Source of the DNA: a virus
Reading direction: 5' to 3' (one strand)
Virus record (IMG/VR): IMGVR_UViG_3300042923_000619
Location: 32,001-96,000 of that record
Length of the DNA: 64,000 bases
Position numbers and translations under genes: made by a program
Part shown: positions 25,284 to 54,875 of the stretch, in pieces
Layout: every line of letters starts with the position of its first letter
Numbering within the stretch: position 1 is the first letter of the stretch
Notes under the pieces: generated by a model
The model's input: the letters and a program-made list of their open reading frames with translations, nothing else
What the model was told of the DNA's origin: nothing
The model's database searches: none

Positions 25284-28200
25284 TTATTTTGGGTTTTTTA
25301 ATAAAGCAAGTTGTTTAGCTTGAGTTATAACATCAGTAAATACATCTTTAACTCCACTATCTACATTAGGGAAAGTTAAATCACCAAATTGATATGTAAC
25401 ACTACTTGCAGTTTTATTATTGTTTACTGTTGATACTGCACCACTACCACTCAAAGAATTTAATACACTAGAATTCATTGAATATCCACTTGCATTAGCA
25501 TAGTTTTTATATTGGTCATATACAGATTGGTTATAAAGTGGATTATTAGAATTATCATACAATCCTTTCTTTCCTTCTGTCCATGTAGAGATTTCTTGTT
25601 TATAAGCATTGAATTTAGTTTGTATGTCTGAAATATCTACATCTCCAATATTAACACCCATTTTATCCATCATGTTTCTAAAGTCTTGGAATGCTTCCTC
25701 ACACTGTACAAGTGCTTCCATTACATATCCCATACTACTTTGAGTTATATTTACTATATTTCCAAATCTAAAATCCCAAACCATTTGAACTAATTCTAAG
25801 AATTTATCTTCAAATTTAGTAAACTTATCTGCAAATTGAACTCTACTGTTATACTCATCAGTTTGTGATTTATTTTGTTTATCCAATTCATTTTTATAGT
25901 GAGCATCTTGTTCAGATTCTAATTTATTATTTATATCTACTAGATTTTTATATTGCTCTGACAATCCATCAGAATCAGTTTTTGTAATTTTATCTACTTG
26001 AGTTTTCCTGTCTTTAATATCATCATCTGTTATGTCTACATTCTTTTTAGATACTGCTAATTTTTCATAACTATCACTTAAATCACTTATTGATTTATTA
26101 GCAATTTTTGCACCTGAATCAACACTGTTTAAATAATTTGTTATTCCTTTTACATCTAGATTAGCTTTATCATTTAACTTATCTTTATTTTTATTAAGGT
26201 ATCCTGATACATCTCCACTATTAATTGCTTCATCTTGTTCAGTAGAAGTAAAATTAGCCTGTAATGTTTTTAAATTATTTAATTTTTGAGTTGACTGATT
26301 AACAAAAATAGAAATTGCATTAGAAATATCACTTATATTGTCGTTATATTCTTTCTTTAAAGAACCTAACATAGTCTTTGCCATTCTTTCAGTGTCAGAA
26401 TAATAAGATTCTATTCTTTTCTTATCCCTATCCTGTGTTTCCTTTAAATCATCGGATATTTTCTTTAGATATTCTTTTTTTACATTGTATGCTTTATCTT
26501 CAGCAGTTTTACTATCTTCTATTTTTTGTTTCTCTTTATCATACTCTTGGTCTGATTTTTCTTTATTGTAAGCCTTTTTAGCGTCATCAACTTCTTTTTT
26601 CTTTTTATCAACAGTTTCTTGGTCTATTGCTCCAACATATGAAAACGTATGGTCTGCATTTTCTTTTGCATATTTTACAGTTTTTTGATTTTCAAGATTA
26701 TTAAGTTCAATTTCTTTCTGTTTTAAATCATTTTTCTTTTCTTGCAGTTCATTAGATTTTTCCTCTTCATTATGTTGTTTTTCTAAAGCATTTAATTCAG
26801 CTTCATAATTATCCATTTTAGATTGATGAAGTTGTTCTTGTTGATTTTCTAAATCTTCTAAATCTTTAGTTTGTTTCTTTTGTTGAGATTCTAATGTTGC
26901 TTCTTCAATCTCTTTTTGATTATCAAACATCTTTTTAAGTTCATCAGTGTTAAACTTATCAATTTGTTCTTGCAAATTAGCTACTTCAAGTTTTTCATCA
27001 CGTAATTCTTTCGATGCCTTGAGTGTTGCTGATTCTAATTCTTTTTGTGCTTCAGCAGTAGTTACAGTTGTAGATTTTAATTTATTTAATTGAGTTTCAG
27101 CTTCACTAACAATTTGTTTTTGTTCATTCATTTTTTTAGATGTTAAATCCACTTTTTGAACAAAATTGCTATCATCAGTATCTCCAAGCAATTTTAAATT
27201 ATAATCTATTTCTCCAATATCATTTTCTATTTTATCTTTAGCTTCGTTATATGCGTCCGTGATATCTTTTATCATCTGTTTTTCTGAGTCTTCTAATTCT
27301 TTGTTCTCTTTTTCCTTCTTTTTCTTAGAATCTCCACCAGATGGCATATAATCTCCACTAGCTGAACTTGGGATATTCCCCCCATTTCCACCACTATACG
27401 GAACGCTACCAATACCAGCATATAATGAATCTGCTTGTTGTTTTGCTTTTTCATATGCATGAAGTTGGTCTTGTTGTTGCTTTAATTGTTCAAATTCAGG
27501 AGAATTTTCTTCTAAACTTTGTGCTTTTCCAATACTCATGGTTGAGTAATCTTGAGCACCAGCCATTCTAGCTGAAATAACTGCTTGAATAGCTTGTATT
27601 TCTGCTTTATACATTCCAATTCTATTAGTTATTTCAGCATATGTAACTTGTGAATTACCAACTTGCCATTCAGAATTAACTTTAGCATCAGTAATACGAA
27701 TTGCACTAAGATTATCTACTGTAAGTCCTTCTGATTGTAATCTTTGTATATTAGCTTCAATTAAAGGAGAATTAGAAATATAAGCTTTCCCATTTTCGTC
27801 AATAGATACATTTAATCCACCAACTTTTTCTTGTAATTGTTCAACTACATTCCCTAATTGAGTTTTCTGTTCAGCAGATAAACTTTCTTGAGCTGATAAA
27901 TTTTGATATTCTGAATATAAACTTTGAACAGAAGAAATATAATTATTAAATTCTGTTTGTGCTTGTTCCATATTCTGTCTATTTTCAAGTTGTGCTTTGG
28001 TTTGTTCTTTTATACTATTAATAACTTTAGTATTGTCTATTTTATCTTGTGCCTCAGTAAATTCATTAACTTTTCCAGTAGTTTCATCAATAGTATATCC
28101 AGCATCTTTTAAAACTTTTTCTTGTTCTTCTATTTTTTTATTTACTCCAGCAATTAAATCTGCTTGATTAGCACCACCAGCAGTTGGATTAAATGATGTT

Positions 28201-31200
28201 GTAGGCATATCTTGATATTTCTTCTTAATTTCAATTAATCTTTGTAATTGCTCTTGTGCCTTTTTCATCTTATCAACATCTTCTTGTGCCTTTGATGTAT
28301 CACCATTCTTTAAAGCTTCATTAACACCTTTTAACGCTTCTTTTAATGTATTAGATTGTTGTGTAAGTTCTGCTTGATGTTCCTTATATGATGTAAAAGC
28401 AGTTATTGCAATACCAACTGCAACAGCAATTCCACTTATAATAAGACCTAAAGGAGTAGTCATAAATGCTACAGAACTAGCCACTGCTTCTTTTATTCCA
28501 GTACTTAATAATACCCATGCACCTTTTAAACCAGTTAATCCTTCTGTTTGTGCTATTGCTCCCATTTGTGCTAATTGCATAGCTTTTGTTGCATTAGTTA
28601 CTTCATTTATTGTAGTACTAACTGTAGACATTCCTGTTAATACCGCTATAAATTTACTTAAACCTGTTACCGCTTCACCAGCAATTAATGTTTTATTTAA
28701 AGTTGATAATTTAGACATGACTAATACCAAGCCACCAATTGTTGCAGTAAAAGCTATAGTTTGTCCATCTACATTTGTTAAAGCCGTTACTAATTGTGTA
28801 AACTCAGATACTAACCATTTTAATTGTTCTGAACTTGTTATTTTTTCATATAATTGTTCAAATGCTCTTTTAAGGTCTTGAATACGTGCATCTAGAGATT
28901 GGTTATACGCTTCATCCATCATTTTTTTAGCTGAACCAGCAGATTGTGCAACTTCTTTTTGATGTTGATTTAACGTATCCATATTCTCCATTAATGCCAT
29001 TAATGTTTCTCTTTGCTTTTATATTTATCTAGAATCGCTAAATCTAGACTTGTGTATATATTTTATCATTTAATATATTTATATAATTATTGTTTTTAAA
29101 TTCCCAATATGGAATATTGTTATCTATACAATATGTATTTTTGATATCATCATGTTTCTTTGTGTAAGTATATGATTCTTCTCCACCAAAATACTCAATA
29201 GTTTCAAAATGTTGTCTTCCGTCACATTCAATTAAATATTTTAATTTATTCTCATTGTTTAATATTGCAAAATCAAATGGAAGTGGCAATATATCTTTAC
29301 ACTTATCAATTTTATATTGTGAAATATATCTAATATTATCATTCTCTAAATATTGTTTTACCAATTTCTCTAATAAAGATTCTGCCTTGGTACAACATTT
29401 ACATCTTGTTTGAAAAGATGTTCTAAAATGTTTAAAAGTAACTTCAAAAGGTTGTCCACATTCCTCACATGAAAACAATAAAGGTGTGTCACAATTAACA
29501 TATTCTATTGATAATAATTTATTTTTATAATTGTTTAGTTTTAAATATAATATTATATTATAAATGGTGTGTGGATTAAACTTGCTAAATTTATCAATAT
29601 TACAGTCCTCTTTTTTATAAAGTAGAAAATCTGATAAAGAAATACAATATCTAAATCCAATATCATCTTGAATATTTATCTTAGATTTAGAATTTTTAAA
29701 CTCAGAAGTATTCATGATTTTAAAATTGTATCCTTTAAGTATTTCATTTGCTTTTTCAATATTAATTTTATTTCTTTTATCTCCCCCAGAACATTGTTTA
29801 CACTTTGTTCTTTTCTTATCTTTTAATTCTGCAAATGAAACAGAATACTCTTTCCCACATTTTTCGCAAGTAAACATGAGTTTTCCAACATTATTTATAT
29901 ATTTATCTGATAGTAGTTTATTTTTACAATCATTTAATACCAACCATAATTTAATATTTTCTATAGTATGAGGATTATATTTGCTAAACTTATCTAATTG
30001 TTTATTATATTGAATATACTCATTAAATGATATCTCATATTTATATCCTTCATCGTCATGAATAGAAAATTTAGTCTTACTATTTACATAATCGTCCTTT
30101 ATCATATATAATCCTTTTTCTTTTAATTTATTTTTGACTTGTTGTAAAGTATATTTTACTGGCATATTTCACCTTCTTGTCCTATTTTAATTATATACAC
30201 AACTCATACTTTCATATGAGAATAGACTATTTCTTCACCTTCATCTATTATATTTTTTTATAATAATGTTAAGGGCGTACCTTTTCCATTTAAGGGATTT
30301 TCACCCACTCTAAGCGATTGAGCCGTACTCCTATTGTTCGATTTTCACGAACCTTCTCAGGGATAGTCGTTGAAGATTCCCCATATTATAAATTAACTTA
30401 GGGGCTTACCTGCATGAACAACCATTTTATTATATAATTTGTTTTATATAATTTGTTTTATATAATTGAATACTTAGGATTTAACCTTATATCCATCCTT
30501 ACGTTTTTTCTACTTTCGTCCCTTCATATACTACTTTCGTATATATTGTGGTGTAAGGCTTTAGGTATTACCTGCAATTAAATACGTGTCCTATGCACAT
30601 TTCTGTACATACGAGGCTTTTTCTAAGAAAAATCTTGTTCCAGCCAAAGCTTGTATTCCTGCTAAGTAATCAACTTGGCTGAGTTGACCACTTTTAAATT
30701 TTTGCATAAATTCTTGCAATACTGTATCAAATTCTTTAAATTGACCTTTATTATTTCTGATTGCGATACCAATTCTATTCCATTTATATTCATATAGGCT
30801 CGTTAATTCCTATACCGTTCTCTTATGAACTGCTTATAGTTTCCTATAAGATTAGACTATATCACTATCCTAAATTAATAGGAGACTCACCATTTCCATT
30901 CACTTGAATGTACTTCCCGAAGGAATAGTCGTTAGGCTTTTATATTCTATATAATAGAATAATTTAGCACGGTAGGTTAGCATATTCATTTATGAACTTA
31001 GCCTTCCCCGTATTAAGCGAGTTATTCGAAATGGATTACTCCATTAAGCCACAAGTTTGTCGTTTATGGCAAATTCTGTATCGTTAATTGTTTTTCCATC
31101 TTCATCAATATTACCTAGTTTTATATTACTATACCTTGCATAGATAGTTTTAAAACTTTCGCCTATTGTTGAAGCTGATTTTCGCGTTTTCTCAGAAACA

Positions 31201-32813
31201 GTTGTAATATATGTGATTAGGTTACTTAGTGGAGTTCCAGCCTCCTGTGCACTAAATGCTGTACGTTGTATTGCTGTTGCTATCTCAGCAAAGCTCGTAG
31301 CAGAAACATTGTCCATCTTACTCATCATATCTACAACATTCTGCATTCCTTCACCAGTCATATTAAAGGCATTTTTAATAGCAATTAATTGTTCAGTAAC
31401 TTGTGCAGTTGTTTGACCAGAAAGTTTAGAACCCATAATAGAAGCAGACATTAACGCTTCTCCTTCTTTTCCATCAAAACCTGCTCTAGTTACTTCTTCC
31501 ATACCCTTCATCATTTCTGCATTTGTTGTATGTAATTGTTCTCCTAATTGCTTATAATTATTAACTATATCAACTATTTCACCTTTGGATTTTCCAGTAA
31601 TCATCTGCATATTAGTCATTGACTTATCCATTTGAATAGTATAATTAACAGCATCTTTTAATTGACTTGTTATTTCTTGAACTACTTGTTGAACGCCATA
31701 AAAAATTCCAACCTTACTTAAAAAATTACTTAATCCACTAAAAAATCCACCATTATTAGTTTCTTTTAAAGAATTAACTAGTTGTTTGGTTTCATTAGTA
31801 GTTTGTTCCATTGATGATTTAACAGTATTTAAACTGTTTCTAATATTATTAAAATTAACATTATCAGTTTCTTTTAATTTACTTAACAAACTGTTTAAAT
31901 CTTTAGTTGTAGACTCCACAAATCCATTAGGTAATTTATTTCCAAACTTTTGTTGCAATTTTTCAACCTGTGAAATTGTATTATTTATATCTTTAGTTAA
32001 TGAATTAGTTTCACTATTTTTTATTTGTTGTTGTAATTTATATTCATCCTCAAGTGCTTTATTTACAGCTTTTGCTTGATTTAATTCTTGTGTTCTATCT
32101 CTTTGTTGAGATTTCTGTTCTGCTTTCTCTCTGCCATTAGCCATTTGATTAACTAAATCATTTTCTTCTTTTTGAATTTGAATTAATTTACTTTCTTCGA
32201 CTTCTAATTGTTTGACTTGTTCTAAATATTTCTTTAATTCATTGTCAGAAGAAAAATTATTAGAGTTGCTAAACATATTTTGTAAATCAGCAACTTTATT
32301 TTTATCAGCAAATCCATTTTTTTCTAATTGATTTAATTTTTGTTGTGCATTTGCAATATCATCTATAGATTGTTTTATCTTAGCATTATTCGTTATAATA
32401 GTTTTTGCAGACTCTACTAAGGTTCCATCTTGTAATGATTGAACTTGTTTTACTACAGTACCTATTCCTGTTGATATTTCAGCTACTTGTTTTCCTATTT
32501 CACCATTATTAAATCTAGTTGTAGTTACTTTTAATACTTCACCATTTAAGTTACTCATTGCTGATGTAGCTTTATTTATAACTTCATTAATATTTCCAAG
32601 TGAAACATTTCCACCTAAACTTGTTTTAAAATTATTTGCCAAATTAGTTAATGTCTCTAGCTGTTTAGCAACATCAGAATTTTTAATATTTATATCTAAA
32701 TCAATTTTTGAATTATTTAAAGTTTTTATAATATTATTTAATTTATTTTGTATTTCATTTGCACTTTGTAATTGTACTCCAAGTAAAATACTACTCTTAA
32801 AACTATCTGCCAT
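25284..32813 (-). CDS. Tail tape measure protein, three exons: 32813-31066, 30780-30633, 29015-25284 (~1875 aa)
   Basis: Joined frame reads ...DTEFA-M-NRIGIAIRNNKGQFKEFDTVLQEF...IQALAGTR-QRETLMALM..., a continuous TP901-type TMP core; lengths 1748+148+3732 = 5628 nt. Confidence 0.88.
29016..30632 (-). mobile_element. Group I intron 2 (~1617 nt) with endonuclease ORF in P9 region
   Basis: P2 hairpin with GAAA loop, AATTGCAGGTAA (P), TTCAACGACTA (R), GAAATAGTCTA (S), P9 CTCATAT-GAAA-GTATGAG, terminal AATATAAAAG; 5' splice site uncertain by a few nt. Confidence 0.85.
29044..30165 (-). CDS. Intron-encoded putative homing endonuclease (duplicated Zn-binding modules plus Vsr/DUF559-like core)
   Basis: Two KFSK(Y/F)NPHTI...F(T/S)CE(K/E)CG modules; LPFDFAI...YLIECDGRQHF. 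Confidence 0.82.
   Translation of the reverse strand: MPVKYTLQQVKNKLKEKGLYMIKDDYVNSKTKFSIHDDEGYKYEISFNEYIQYNKQLDKFSKYNPHTIENIKLWLVLNDCKNKLLSDKYINNVGKLMFTCEKCGKEYSVSFAELKDKKRTKCKQCSGGDKRNKINIEKANEILKGYNFKIMNTSEFKNSKSKINIQDDIGFRYCISLSDFLLYKKEDCNIDKFSKFNPHTIYNIILYLKLNNYKNKLLSIEYVNCDTPLLFSCEECGQPFEVTFKHFRTSFQTRCKCCTKAESLLEKLVKQYLENDNIRYISQYKIDKCKDILPLPFDFAILNNENKLKYLIECDGRQHFETIEYFGGEESYTYTKKHDDIKNTYCIDNNIPYWEFKNNNYINILNDKIYTQV
30781..31065 (-). mobile_element. Group I intron 1 (285 nt, ORF-less)
   Basis: P1 exon GCCAU pairs with GUGGC (U.G at splice site); AATACGGGGAA (P), CTAACGACTA (R), GATATAGTCTA (S), P9 CTTATAG-GAAA-CTATAAG, terminal AATATAAATG. Confidence 0.9.
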
Positions 32814-38121: not shown

Positions 38122-39615
38122 TTAGATATATTTAAATGTATGTCCCTTATACTGTCTTCTATCACCTCGGCATACTTGAGATATTCCATGACTTAATAAT
38201 TTAATTTTAAATACTTGTTCACTAATATCTTCTAAGTATTTTGCGGAATTAAATATACCTAAACTAATTCCATCTTTAAACATTTCTACTTTTTTACTAT
38301 GTTCTTTACTTGCCTTAATTGATACTCTAATCATTTCTTCTTTCGGGTTATAATTAACCCATATTCCATTTCCTTGTTTTAAATACTTACATATAGTACT
38401 AGAACTTAAATTTAAAATATTTCCTATATTAGTAGTAGTTAATTCTGGATTGTTATTTTTAATTTCACATGCCTTTTTAACTAAATTAGAACAAGCATAT
38501 TCGTTACATTTATTCCAATCTAATTTATTTAAATTAAATAAATTATTTAAAGTTGTATTTTTTAAAATGTGTTCTTTAATCCAATCTAAAGTAGAATATC
38601 TACAATCAATAACTATGTAGTTTTCGGGTTTTATTCCATTTTTTAAAGCTAATTGTTTCTTTAATTTATCATTTAATTGTTCTTGTTGTAAAGAACGTCC
38701 TCGTTTTTGCTCTTCATAATGTTGTTGTCCATGTGTTTCTATAATGTATTGTTCATTATTTAACTCAAAATAGAAATCATATTTATATTCTTGACACCAT
38801 TTGAAAGTCGTCTTAGTAAGTTGTGTCTTAAAATCCAATTTAAATTGTTCTAGTATATTGAATAAAAACTTTTCAGGATATGGGATTTTATCAGAACAAG
38901 AACATCCTATTGAATGATTTCTATAAATATCTGCTATTCTTTTTTTCTTAGATTTTATACGTCCACAGTCAGGACAAATAGGATATATGTATCCTTTCGG
39001 ATTATTAGGGTTTCCACTACCTGTTTTAGTATATAATTTAGCTTCTTCATAATTACCTTGAAAATAAGGAATTAACCAAGGTACGGTTGTCGGTATATCA
39101 TTTATTCCTTGAATTACTGTTCTTCCTGCACAACAAGAGCAACCTGTTTGTTGTTTTCCTATCAAAGCACTTTCTACAATCCACTGTTTATGACTACAGA
39201 TATTACAATGATAGTTATACCATTTTTCTTTAAGAATACTTTTTCTTCCCAGTTTGTCTACTTTTTCTTTTTCTCTATATTCTTTATCTATAATAGTGAT
39301 ATTTCTTTTATCATCTTGTAATCTCGTTCCTATTTCTATTTTAAATTCATCTGTGACTTTTCCTAATATTTTTCCTATTCTACATTGTAAAAGATTAGGA
39401 GTTTGAATTATATATTCATTATTATTATATTTTATTGTTACTTTTTGACCTTTTGGAATATAATTTATAATTTCAAAATAATTGTCAATATTATCATATA
39501 TAAAATACACTTTATAACCAATACTGCTATTCCAATCAATTCTAAAATAATCCCCATATTTTTCTTTTGGTAATTCATCTAAAAATATCTTCTTTTTTAC
39601 TTCCTCTTTACTCAT
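38122..39615 (-). CDS. Free-standing putative homing endonuclease (Zn-finger, DUF559/Vsr-like, NUMOD1-like)
   Basis: GINDIPTTVPWL, CPDCG, CSCSDKIPYPEKF, YKYDFYF...IIETHGQQHY, GISQVCRGDRRQYKGHTFKYI. Confidence 0.75.
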   Translation of the reverse strand: MSKEEVKKKIFLDELPKEKYGDYFRIDWNSSIGYKVYFIYDNIDNYFEIINYIPKGQKVTIKYNNNEYIIQTPNLLQCRIGKILGKVTDEFKIEIGTRLQDDKRNITIIDKEYREKEKVDKLGRKSILKEKWYNYHCNICSHKQWIVESALIGKQQTGCSCCAGRTVIQGINDIPTTVPWLIPYFQGNYEEAKLYTKTGSGNPNNPKGYIYPICPDCGRIKSKKKRIADIYRNHSIGCSCSDKIPYPEKFLFNILEQFKLDFKTQLTKTTFKWCQEYKYDFYFELNNEQYIIETHGQQHYEEQKRGRSLQQEQLNDKLKKQLALKNGIKPENYIVIDCRYSTLDWIKEHILKNTTLNNLFNLNKLDWNKCNEYACSNLVKKACEIKNNNPELTTTNIGNILNLSSSTICKYLKQGNGIWVNYNPKEEMIRVSIKASKEHSKKVEMFKDGISLGIFNSAKYLEDISEQVFKIKLLSHGISQVCRGDRRQYKGHTFKYI

Positions 39616-54316: not shown

Positions 54317-54319
54317 TCT

Positions 54320-54600
54320 TATTACCTCACTTCTTATTATTTTAAATTAATTTATTTAAATGAGGTATTTTGTTGATAAATGTGAAAATATCCTAAAATC
54401 ACATTTAGCTAAATTGCTAATAATCGATATTTAATTTTAAAATGGTGAATTCTTTTGATAATGCAGTAATAATCACTAGACTGCAACCTAGAAATAATTC
54501 TAGTTATCTATATTTGGTTTTTATAGTGTAATAAAACACCAATAAATATACTAATTATCAAATTCGAATCTCACATAAGAGGCTAATCAAAAGTAAGATT
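54320..54600 (-). ncRNA. Candidate structured RNA B / leader (multi-branch junction, RBS-sequestering stem)
   Basis: Closing stem 54454-54462/54554-54562 enclosing three hairpins; TACCTCA/TGAGGTA stem over the RBS of 54316. Confidence 0.45.
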
Positions 54601-54660
54601 TATAGATAATCAATATATTTATTGCTACTTTATCATTAATTAATTTATTTTTAAATTTTA

Positions 54661-54872
54661 GGCGATGGATAACTTCACATTATCAAATCGCCTTTCAACA
54701 TCTACTATAATAGTAGTCATGGAGTTAAACTCCTTCAATATGGGAATCTATACCCATTCTCAAATAGTTGGTTATCGAATACGAAATCCAACGCACTCCT
54801 TTTACACATGGTAAATGAGTATTGATAAAACATTTGTTTTATCAAATTTGGGTCACATCTCAATGAGTATAT
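54661..54872 (-). ncRNA. Candidate structured RNA A (seven adjacent hairpins)
   Basis: Stems at 54661-92, 54702-16, 54721-33, 54741-56, 54767-92, 54795-820, 54822-45; no ORF. Confidence 0.5.
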
Positions 54873-54875
54873 GCC

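Follow-up and report, generated by a model that had tools for sequence, protein, structure and literature searches.

A tape-measure gene of an uncultured soil phage is very likely interrupted by two mobile group I introns flanking a 148-nt exon

The window analyzed here is a stretch of 64,000 nucleotides (nt) from a virus, positions 32,001 to 96,000 of IMG/VR record IMGVR_UViG_3300042923_000619, a 196-kb viral contig with terminal repeats that represents an uncultured soil phage. Three open reading frames (ORFs) lie in succession on its minus strand and encode 589 amino acids (aa; 32813-31044), 373 aa (30165-29044), and 1238 aa (29000-25284). We conclude, with high confidence, that the first and last of these belong to one tape-measure protein (TMP) gene interrupted by two mobile IA2-type group I introns only 148 nt apart, which would be removed by self-splicing. 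The gene begins with exon 1 (31066..32813; 1748 nt, or 582 codons plus 2 nt, with the 3’ end ...GCCAU), followed by intron 1 (30781..31065), a 285-nt ORF-less IA2 intron resembling that of the T4 td gene. Exon 2 (30633..30780) comprises 148 nt and encodes ...NRIGIAIRNNKGQFKEFDTVLQEFMQKFKSGQLSQVDYLAGIQALAGTR, and intron 2 (29016..30632) extends over 1617 nt, of which the first ~467 nt form the ribozyme. Exon 3 (25284..29015) contributes 3732 nt, equal to 1243 codons and a stop codon, and begins with CAAAGAGAA (QRE...). The 373-aa ORF (29044..30165) is contained within intron 2.

The exon joints are fixed by comparison with uninterrupted homologues. Excision of 31065-30781 and 30632-29016 yields a stop-free frame of 5628 nt that encodes 1875 aa, the same joined product that a first-pass annotation of this DNA had proposed, and both the frame and its relatives bear that proposal out. 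In a tblastn comparison with the TMP of Psychrobacillus phage Perkons, the match to exon 1 stops at 31065 and restarts at 29015. The joined 1875-aa protein aligns with the Perkons TMP gap-free at both joints and through the 49-aa middle exon, with exon 2 corresponding to Perkons residues 640-686. Similarly, the best IMG/VR relative, L007 (IMGVR_UViG_2710264778_000001; ~50% identical overall), is uninterrupted at both sites and colinear with the joined TMP up to residue 1801. Its DNA reads GCCAT|GAACAG and ACTAGG|CAAAGA at the two joints, and its protein reads ...TAMNRIG... and ...AGTRQRETL... (DTETAMNRIGIAIRNNKGQFKEF...AGIQALAGTRQRETLMALMEN), residues identical to the prediction across both. 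Over the 49 whole codons of exon 2, the window and L007 differ at 24 nucleotides, all synonymous, and at 0 amino acids.

Intron-less alleles are also found in nature. A DNA metagenome from another habitat (X3) contains contigs without exactly 30781-31065, as well as a contig without exactly 29016-30632 in which a synonymous AGA-to-CGT change adjoins the joint; the intron 2 site in its intron-less context, as in L007 or X3, is GGAACAAGA|CAAAGAGAA. An independent run from soil (X2) contains the intron-bearing form again, with 0 differences. The presence of both forms indicates that the alleles coexist in nature, and it fixes the intron boundaries to the base. For both introns, precise excision restores the frame of the host gene and its conserved protein.

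The identity of the interrupted gene is well supported. The 589-aa ORF matches Pfam PhageMin_Tail (PF10145) at 1e-19, with the match ending early at profile position 145 of 201, and PHROG 4211 (tape measure) is matched colinearly by the 589-aa ORF (positions 441-784) and the 1238-aa ORF (positions 848-1132). Exon 1 thus carries matches to both families, and several TMP PHROGs are matched in all. Beyond the PhageMin_Tail domain, the gene has the great length of a tape measure and lies between tail chaperone-like and distal tail genes; the downstream ORF 23766-24920 matches PHROG 1887, a tail protein. A tail length of ~280 nm follows from 1875 x 0.15 nm, which is rule-of-thumb arithmetic only.

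Intron 1 has the features of a minimal td-like ribozyme. The 190 nt at its 3’ end are similar to T4-type td introns and to ~700 phage records (blastn, E down to 6e-29), including Staphylococcus phage GenBank features annotated as Intron_gpI, and no occurrence of its exact R...S pattern would be expected by chance in the window. The paired regions (P) comprise P1 (31070-31064/31054-31048), P2 (31044-31031, GUAA loop), P3 (31021-31016/30891-30886), P6 (30960-30944), P7 (30930-30925/30860-30855), P7.1 (30924-30915), P7.2 (30910-30897), P8 (30883-30868), P9 (30849-30834, GAAA loop), P9.1 (30830-30817), and P9.2 (30815-30792), and the last base is G30781. A minimum-energy fold (z -2.45) recovers P1, P2, P3, P4-P5, a closed P6, P7.1, P7.2, P8, and P9-P9.2; it omits only the P7 pseudoknot, the partner strands of which are, as expected, complementary (GACUAU/AUAGUC). 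The 7-bp P1 (GCCAUAA/UUGUGGC) contains the canonical pair between the 5’ exon U and the guide G, U31066·G31052.

This structure is conserved in evolution. Among 121 homologues, IMG/VR sequences fetched by the exact R...S pattern, compensatory changes occur in P7.1, P7.2, P8, P9, P9.1, and P9.2; for example, the P9 pair 99-112 is GC in 33, UA in 27, AU in 22, and CG in 22. In the phage T4 td intron (IA2), P7.1 and P7.2 lie between P7 and P3’, and both the fold and the covariation of intron 1 agree with this order. The succession P7, P7.1, P7.2, P3’, and P8, together with the P9.1/P9.2 extensions, therefore places intron 1 in subgroup IA2. Its core is ~70% identical to that of td over 189 nt and shares the conserved CAAGUG and AUUAACGA loops. 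The two differ in that intron 1 lacks an endonuclease ORF in P6 and interrupts a tail gene rather than thymidylate synthase.

Intron 2 is built around a second ribozyme. Its helices are P1 (30634-30628/30622-30616), P2 (30611-30592), P3 (30586-30580/30282-30276), P7 (30368-30363/30230-30225), P8 (30274-30271/30241-30238), and P9 (30220-30203, GAAA loop), and the intron closes with a 6-bp terminal hairpin (29048-29028) and ...AAAUAUAAAAG, with G29016 as its last base. Both introns thus end in the expected terminal G (omega G), at positions set by the intron-less alleles. The first-pass annotation had quoted the 3’ ends AAUAUAAAUG and AAUAUAAAAG, GNRA-capped P9 hairpins (GAAA in the sequence), R/S (P7) elements, and a stop at 31044, all of which are present; its broader claim of two group I introns with exact joints is upheld by the ribozyme cores, their covariation, and the intron-less DNA.

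In blastn searches, nt 259-430 of intron 2 match the core of the Staphylococcus phage K lysK (endolysin) intron (E 1e-8), and intron 2 also matches the Clostridium botulinum phage c-st / D-1873 group I element. The resemblance to lysK covers the P7-P7.2 region, whereas the lysK intron has a canonical ...GGU| 5’ splice site and an endonuclease ORF upstream of the core rather than in the 3’ terminal loop. The 3’ end of the lysK intron is, in turn, resembled by P9-P9.2 of intron 1. The 5’ part of intron 2 belongs to a family present in 13 viral contigs, and in the 13-member alignment the long-range P3 (65-71/369-375) covaries with up to four pair types while P7 (283-288/421-426) shows CG-to-UA and UA-to-CG exchanges. 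Covariation of both helices supports a P3/P7 pseudoknot in intron 2, and P2, P8, and the GAAA-capped P9 covary likewise. Hairpins between P7 (30368-30363) and P3’ (30282-30276) are arranged as in subgroup IA2, an assignment that is less certain than for intron 1. The periphery is more variable. In one peripheral loop, an AU-rich duplicated tandem segment (30429..30464) is a dispensable insert missing from members of the intron 2 family, and an X3 variant lacks 96 nt (30374-30469), so this loop is length-polymorphic.

Two relatives of intron 2, L136 and L140, were reached via close homologues of its endonuclease and occupy the same TMP codon (GGAACAAGR|...AAAAG|CAAA). Their flanking exons are only 60-73% identical to those of the window, and P2, P3, and P8 are maintained by compensatory changes. 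Exon 3 of both lacks a start codon near the joint and would therefore be expressible only after splicing.

Unlike intron 1, intron 2 departs from the canonical pairing of a 5’ exon U with the guide G. The 5’ exon ends with A30633, and the wobble pair U30632·G30617 lies one base inside the intron. The guide, A-G30617-CCUCG, is immediately 5’ of P2, and the best P1 register places the U30632·G wobble at the first intron base, followed by four U-A pairs. On the exon side, G30634-C, A30635-U, and C30637-G are paired while A30633 faces C. The cut must nonetheless follow A30633 because no other pair of sites yields the conserved protein. Cleavage after U30630 would give GTRF|QRE, and cleavage after U30631 combined with G29011 would give GTRLETL; both are ruled out by AGTRQRE in L007 and the X3 contig. 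A cut after U30632 produces a frameshift or stop. An upstream P1 (GGC 30645-30643/GCC 30617-30615), the usual register of the family, was rejected as the productive helix: it would be out of frame here, and in L136 and L140 it lies in another register.

A comparable displacement is known from IStrons, in which a group I intron is combined with genes of an insertion sequence (IS). The 5’ exons of group B IStrons end in G, and the wobble U is located within the element, “shifted by one bp” (Tourasse, Stabell and Kolsto 2014, PMC4227781); for BcISt1, a member of this group, the same study reports in vivo splicing after G. The element of C. botulinum phage c-st couples a group I intron to a downstream IS OrfB transposase gene; its junction is GAGG|U and its guide is GCCUC. 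It is 73% identical to intron 2 over 114 nt, shares this guide, and likewise carries its cargo after P9 near the 3’ end. Intron 2 resembles the group B IStrons (BcISt1, and CbISt of C. botulinum and its phages) in the purine that ends its exon and in the one-base shift. However, a homing endonuclease gene takes the place of the IS607/IS200 transposase genes (ORF A, a serine recombinase, and ORF B), four U-A pairs rather than an internal loop follow its U·G pair, and its exon ends in A, not G.

Intron 2 is accordingly not an IStron, though its 5’ splice site works like that of group B. We tentatively suggest, as a possibility that falls somewhat short of even odds, that intron 2 and its relatives in L136 and L140 are transposon-less members of the group B IStron ribozyme lineage that carry a homing endonuclease and are cut one base upstream of the partner of the guide G, after A or G. 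The choice of site would then be independent of the U·G wobble, and the shift would be a property of the ribozyme and not of the IS607 target. The wider family (L008-L021) shows a separate pattern, in which the guide G faces an exon C in 9 of 12 members (a C-G pair) and an exon U in 1, and in 1 further member C faces A. A C opposite the guide G combined with a terminal 3’ G would imply splicing after C, a rare exception in PMC4227781. We did not retain this C-G splice-site pair for the family, as the intron-less allele in L010 is ambiguous by one base (C with terminal G, or A with terminal A).

The gene carried by intron 2 is located 3’ of P9 and has its own ribosome-binding site (GAAGGUGA, 30176-30169). 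The 373-aa ORF matches PHROG 559, 9084, and 7140 (homing or intron-encoded endonuclease) and has Zn-ribbon Pfam matches; at E<=1e-10 it has 272 homologues, most of them unnamed and many with treble-clef zinc-finger, DUF723, CapR, or DUF2726 Pfam domains. An AlphaFold model (mean predicted local distance difference test score, pLDDT, 88.6) features a C-terminal domain preceded by two zinc-ribbon repeats. The 373-aa protein had no match when the PDB was searched by sequence, and Foldseek with the whole model returned weak rows only, none significant. For residues 262-373, the best structural match is I-Bth0305I (3r3p_B; Z 10.4, root-mean-square deviation 2.8 Å over 91 of 98 residues), and Vsr (1cw0_A) scores Z 9.7. 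Across 42 homologues, D298, E313, G316, H319, and K342 do not vary, and D339 is almost invariant. The modeled fold and these acidic and histidine residues point to an I-Bth0305I/Vsr-like homing endonuclease of the PD-(D/E)XK type, which is presumably active. I-Bth0305I is encoded in the recA intron of Bacillus phage 0305phi8-36 (PDB 3R3P), so the two enzymes share a nuclease domain and residence in phage group I introns; they are only 15% identical, and the N-terminal part of the intron 2 enzyme consists of two zinc-ribbon repeats.

Taken together, we propose that the late transcript folds into two ribozymes, each of which would excise itself. Guanosine would attack the 5’ splice site and the exons would then be ligated after the terminal G, joining the three exons into a single mRNA for the 1875-aa TMP. 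Intron 1 would act as a minimal td-like ribozyme devoid of ORFs, with a canonical U·G pair at its splice site. In intron 2, cut after A30633, the ribozyme would be at the 5’ end, and the 3’ terminal loop contains the gene for an I-Bth0305I/Vsr-type endonuclease. If this enzyme behaves as other homing endonucleases do, it would cut intron-less alleles, and intron 2 would be copied into them. Both introns lie in the PhageMin_Tail domain, the most conserved part of the TMP. As the first-pass annotation anticipated, full-length TMP would depend on both splicing events. Translation into unspliced RNA halts after 7 codons in intron 1 or 13 codons in intron 2, and omission of exon 2 breaks the frame with a stop after 587 aa; failed or skipped splicing would therefore leave a truncated TMP of 587, 589, or 645 aa.

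Several observations weigh against this interpretation. Among public sequencing runs, no RNA run is listed with the locus, such that splicing is deduced from DNA, and run X6 (“RNA?”) provided short diverged pieces only, with no joints seen. A P10 pairing is not evident for either intron. The group I covariance model that the first-pass annotation had put forward as a check, Rfam RF00028 (Intron_gpI), matches neither intron at the gathering score or at E<=10, a scan that returned just two chance-level rows; a match to this model is a detection tool and not a defining property of group I introns. The exon side of P1 in intron 2 is weak, with three of five pairs formed in the best register and A30633 unpaired. 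The last exon base among same-site relatives is A, A, and G, and L140 lacks U at +1; in this relative, the G at -1 pairs with the guide C that faces A30633 in the window, and A occupies +1. Finally, exon 3 has an in-frame ATG close to its start, at 29000, which makes separate translation of that exon conceivable in this phage.

The last of these points, along with the weak P1 and non-canonical splice site of intron 2, could be taken to indicate that the gene is truly split. At a minimum the endonuclease-bearing intervening sequence, and perhaps both, would then remain unspliced, and the 589-aa and 1238-aa polypeptides would cooperate, as happens when a free-standing homing endonuclease gene divides a gene. 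We regard this as the least probable of the alternatives, and very improbable in itself. Complete, covarying group I cores occupy both intervening sequences; the 148-nt exon lacks its own start codon but differs from L007 only by the 24 synonymous and no non-synonymous changes; no good Shine-Dalgarno site precedes the ATG at 29000; and no ATG is found near the start of exon 3 in L136 and L140. A slightly better case, but still an improbable one, is that intron 2 is a poorly adapted recent arrival brought by its endonuclease, with inefficient or cryptic splicing and little or altered TMP as a consequence. Its guide, GCCUCG, would still fit another target (GAGG/U): it is the same as in L021 (target GAGGC), is near that of the c-st IStron (GAGG|U), and pairs here with only three of the last five exon bases, while the upstream GGC/GCC helix competes for it. 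Nevertheless, the same intron is found at the same site in two diverged TMP genes with its ribozyme maintained by compensatory changes, the cryptic upstream site is out of frame, and the phage is abundant in its own sample (depth ~200) and recurs in the second soil run.

The first-pass annotation also raised the speculation that two consecutive splicing events form a regulatory checkpoint on tail assembly or virion production. The truncated products expected from splice failure or exon skipping would be compatible with such a role, but intron-less alleles of both sites occur in close relatives and in nature, the sites are in the most conserved stretch of the TMP as is usual for homing, and the sequence gives no sign of a regulated step. 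This role seems quite unlikely, ranking between the two alternatives above. The existence of intron-less alleles at both sites instead indicates that the introns come and go like selfish elements, in keeping with the reading of two mobile self-splicing introns.

The arrangement is familiar from phages of Gram-positive bacteria and represents an ordinary mobile intron pair in a known hot-spot gene. Tandem introns in a tape-measure gene had been called rare at first pass, a view contradicted both by published cases and by the relatives fetched here. In Bacillus cereus-group prophages, tape-measure genes have three intron sites (TMP-IVS1, IVS2, and IVS3), and two introns occupy one gene in E33L (IVS1 and IVS3a) and KBAB4 (IVS2 and IVS3a) (Tourasse and Kolsto 2008, PMC2504315). 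These introns resemble those of the window in their IA1/IA2 subgroups, multiple TMP sites, patchy presence, and targeting of conserved stretches; they belong to another phage lineage and apparently occupy other insertion sites. The window introns differ in that they are only 148 nt apart and that intron 2 has an I-Bth0305I-type endonuclease and a shifted 5’ splice site. Likewise, as cited in PMC11878797, the tail tube gene orf142 of phage Twort contains three group I introns with exon skipping (Landthaler and Shub 1999). Like the present gene, it is a structural gene of the tail that harbors multiple group I introns, has short exons between them, and is open to exon skipping; it differs in gene and phage, and its splicing was experimentally shown rather than deduced as here. 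Spliced introns in capsid and tail genes are also known from mycobacteriophages.

The main value of this analysis is correct annotation, as two ‘tail protein’ ORFs, together with what separates them, constitute one 1875-aa TMP gene with two mobile introns and a homing endonuclease, an arrangement missed by both gene callers and Rfam. It adds a case in which the conserved PhageMin_Tail core of TMP genes attracts group I introns. At least three intron sites fall in a span of 126 codons in this phage clade, and gut phages have more; further sites or combinations are seen in L007, L008, L010, L020, L136, and L140. Homing by an I-Bth0305I-type enzyme could be tested with the natural pair of intron-bearing and intron-less alleles. 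The sole mechanistic interest lies in the non-U 5’ splice site of intron 2, which, together with its relatives, could inform the choice of cleavage site in IStron-type introns.

Elsewhere in the 196-kb genome, a regular-expression scan for R/S cores identified no introns beyond these two. A 560-nt gap between ORFs (54317-54875, minus strand) has no group I R/S core and no Rfam match. A 497-aa paralogue of the intron endonuclease (38122-39615, minus strand; PHROG 4538, 9084, and 7140) is encoded in the structural module with a GGAGGT ribosome-binding site and upstream hairpins. We considered whether it is intron-borne and rejected this, since the gene is free-standing with no ribozyme core around it.

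Other TMP introns were observed in the relatives. L007 has a third TMP group I intron (L007:9665-10894) at codon ~508, a site uninterrupted in the window, with a canonical GUCGUU|...GACGAC P1 that includes the U·G pair and with a terminal G; it encodes a GIY-YIG/NUMOD1 homing endonuclease of 292 aa (L007:9791-10669). TMP codons 509-742 of the window and L007 are ~97% identical in protein and ~85% in DNA, compared with ~50% for the remainder of both TMPs, and all three intron sites, the two here and the one in L007, fall within or border this block. In the human gut phage L008 (MT835469.1), two introns of the intron 2 family flank a 228-nt exon of the TMP gene (FKT|ISM and DIQQA| sites), and the second contains two ORFs (57 and 476 aa) rather than one. 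The TMP gene of L010 is without the first of these introns, and L020 has a different insert of ~275 nt a few codons upstream.

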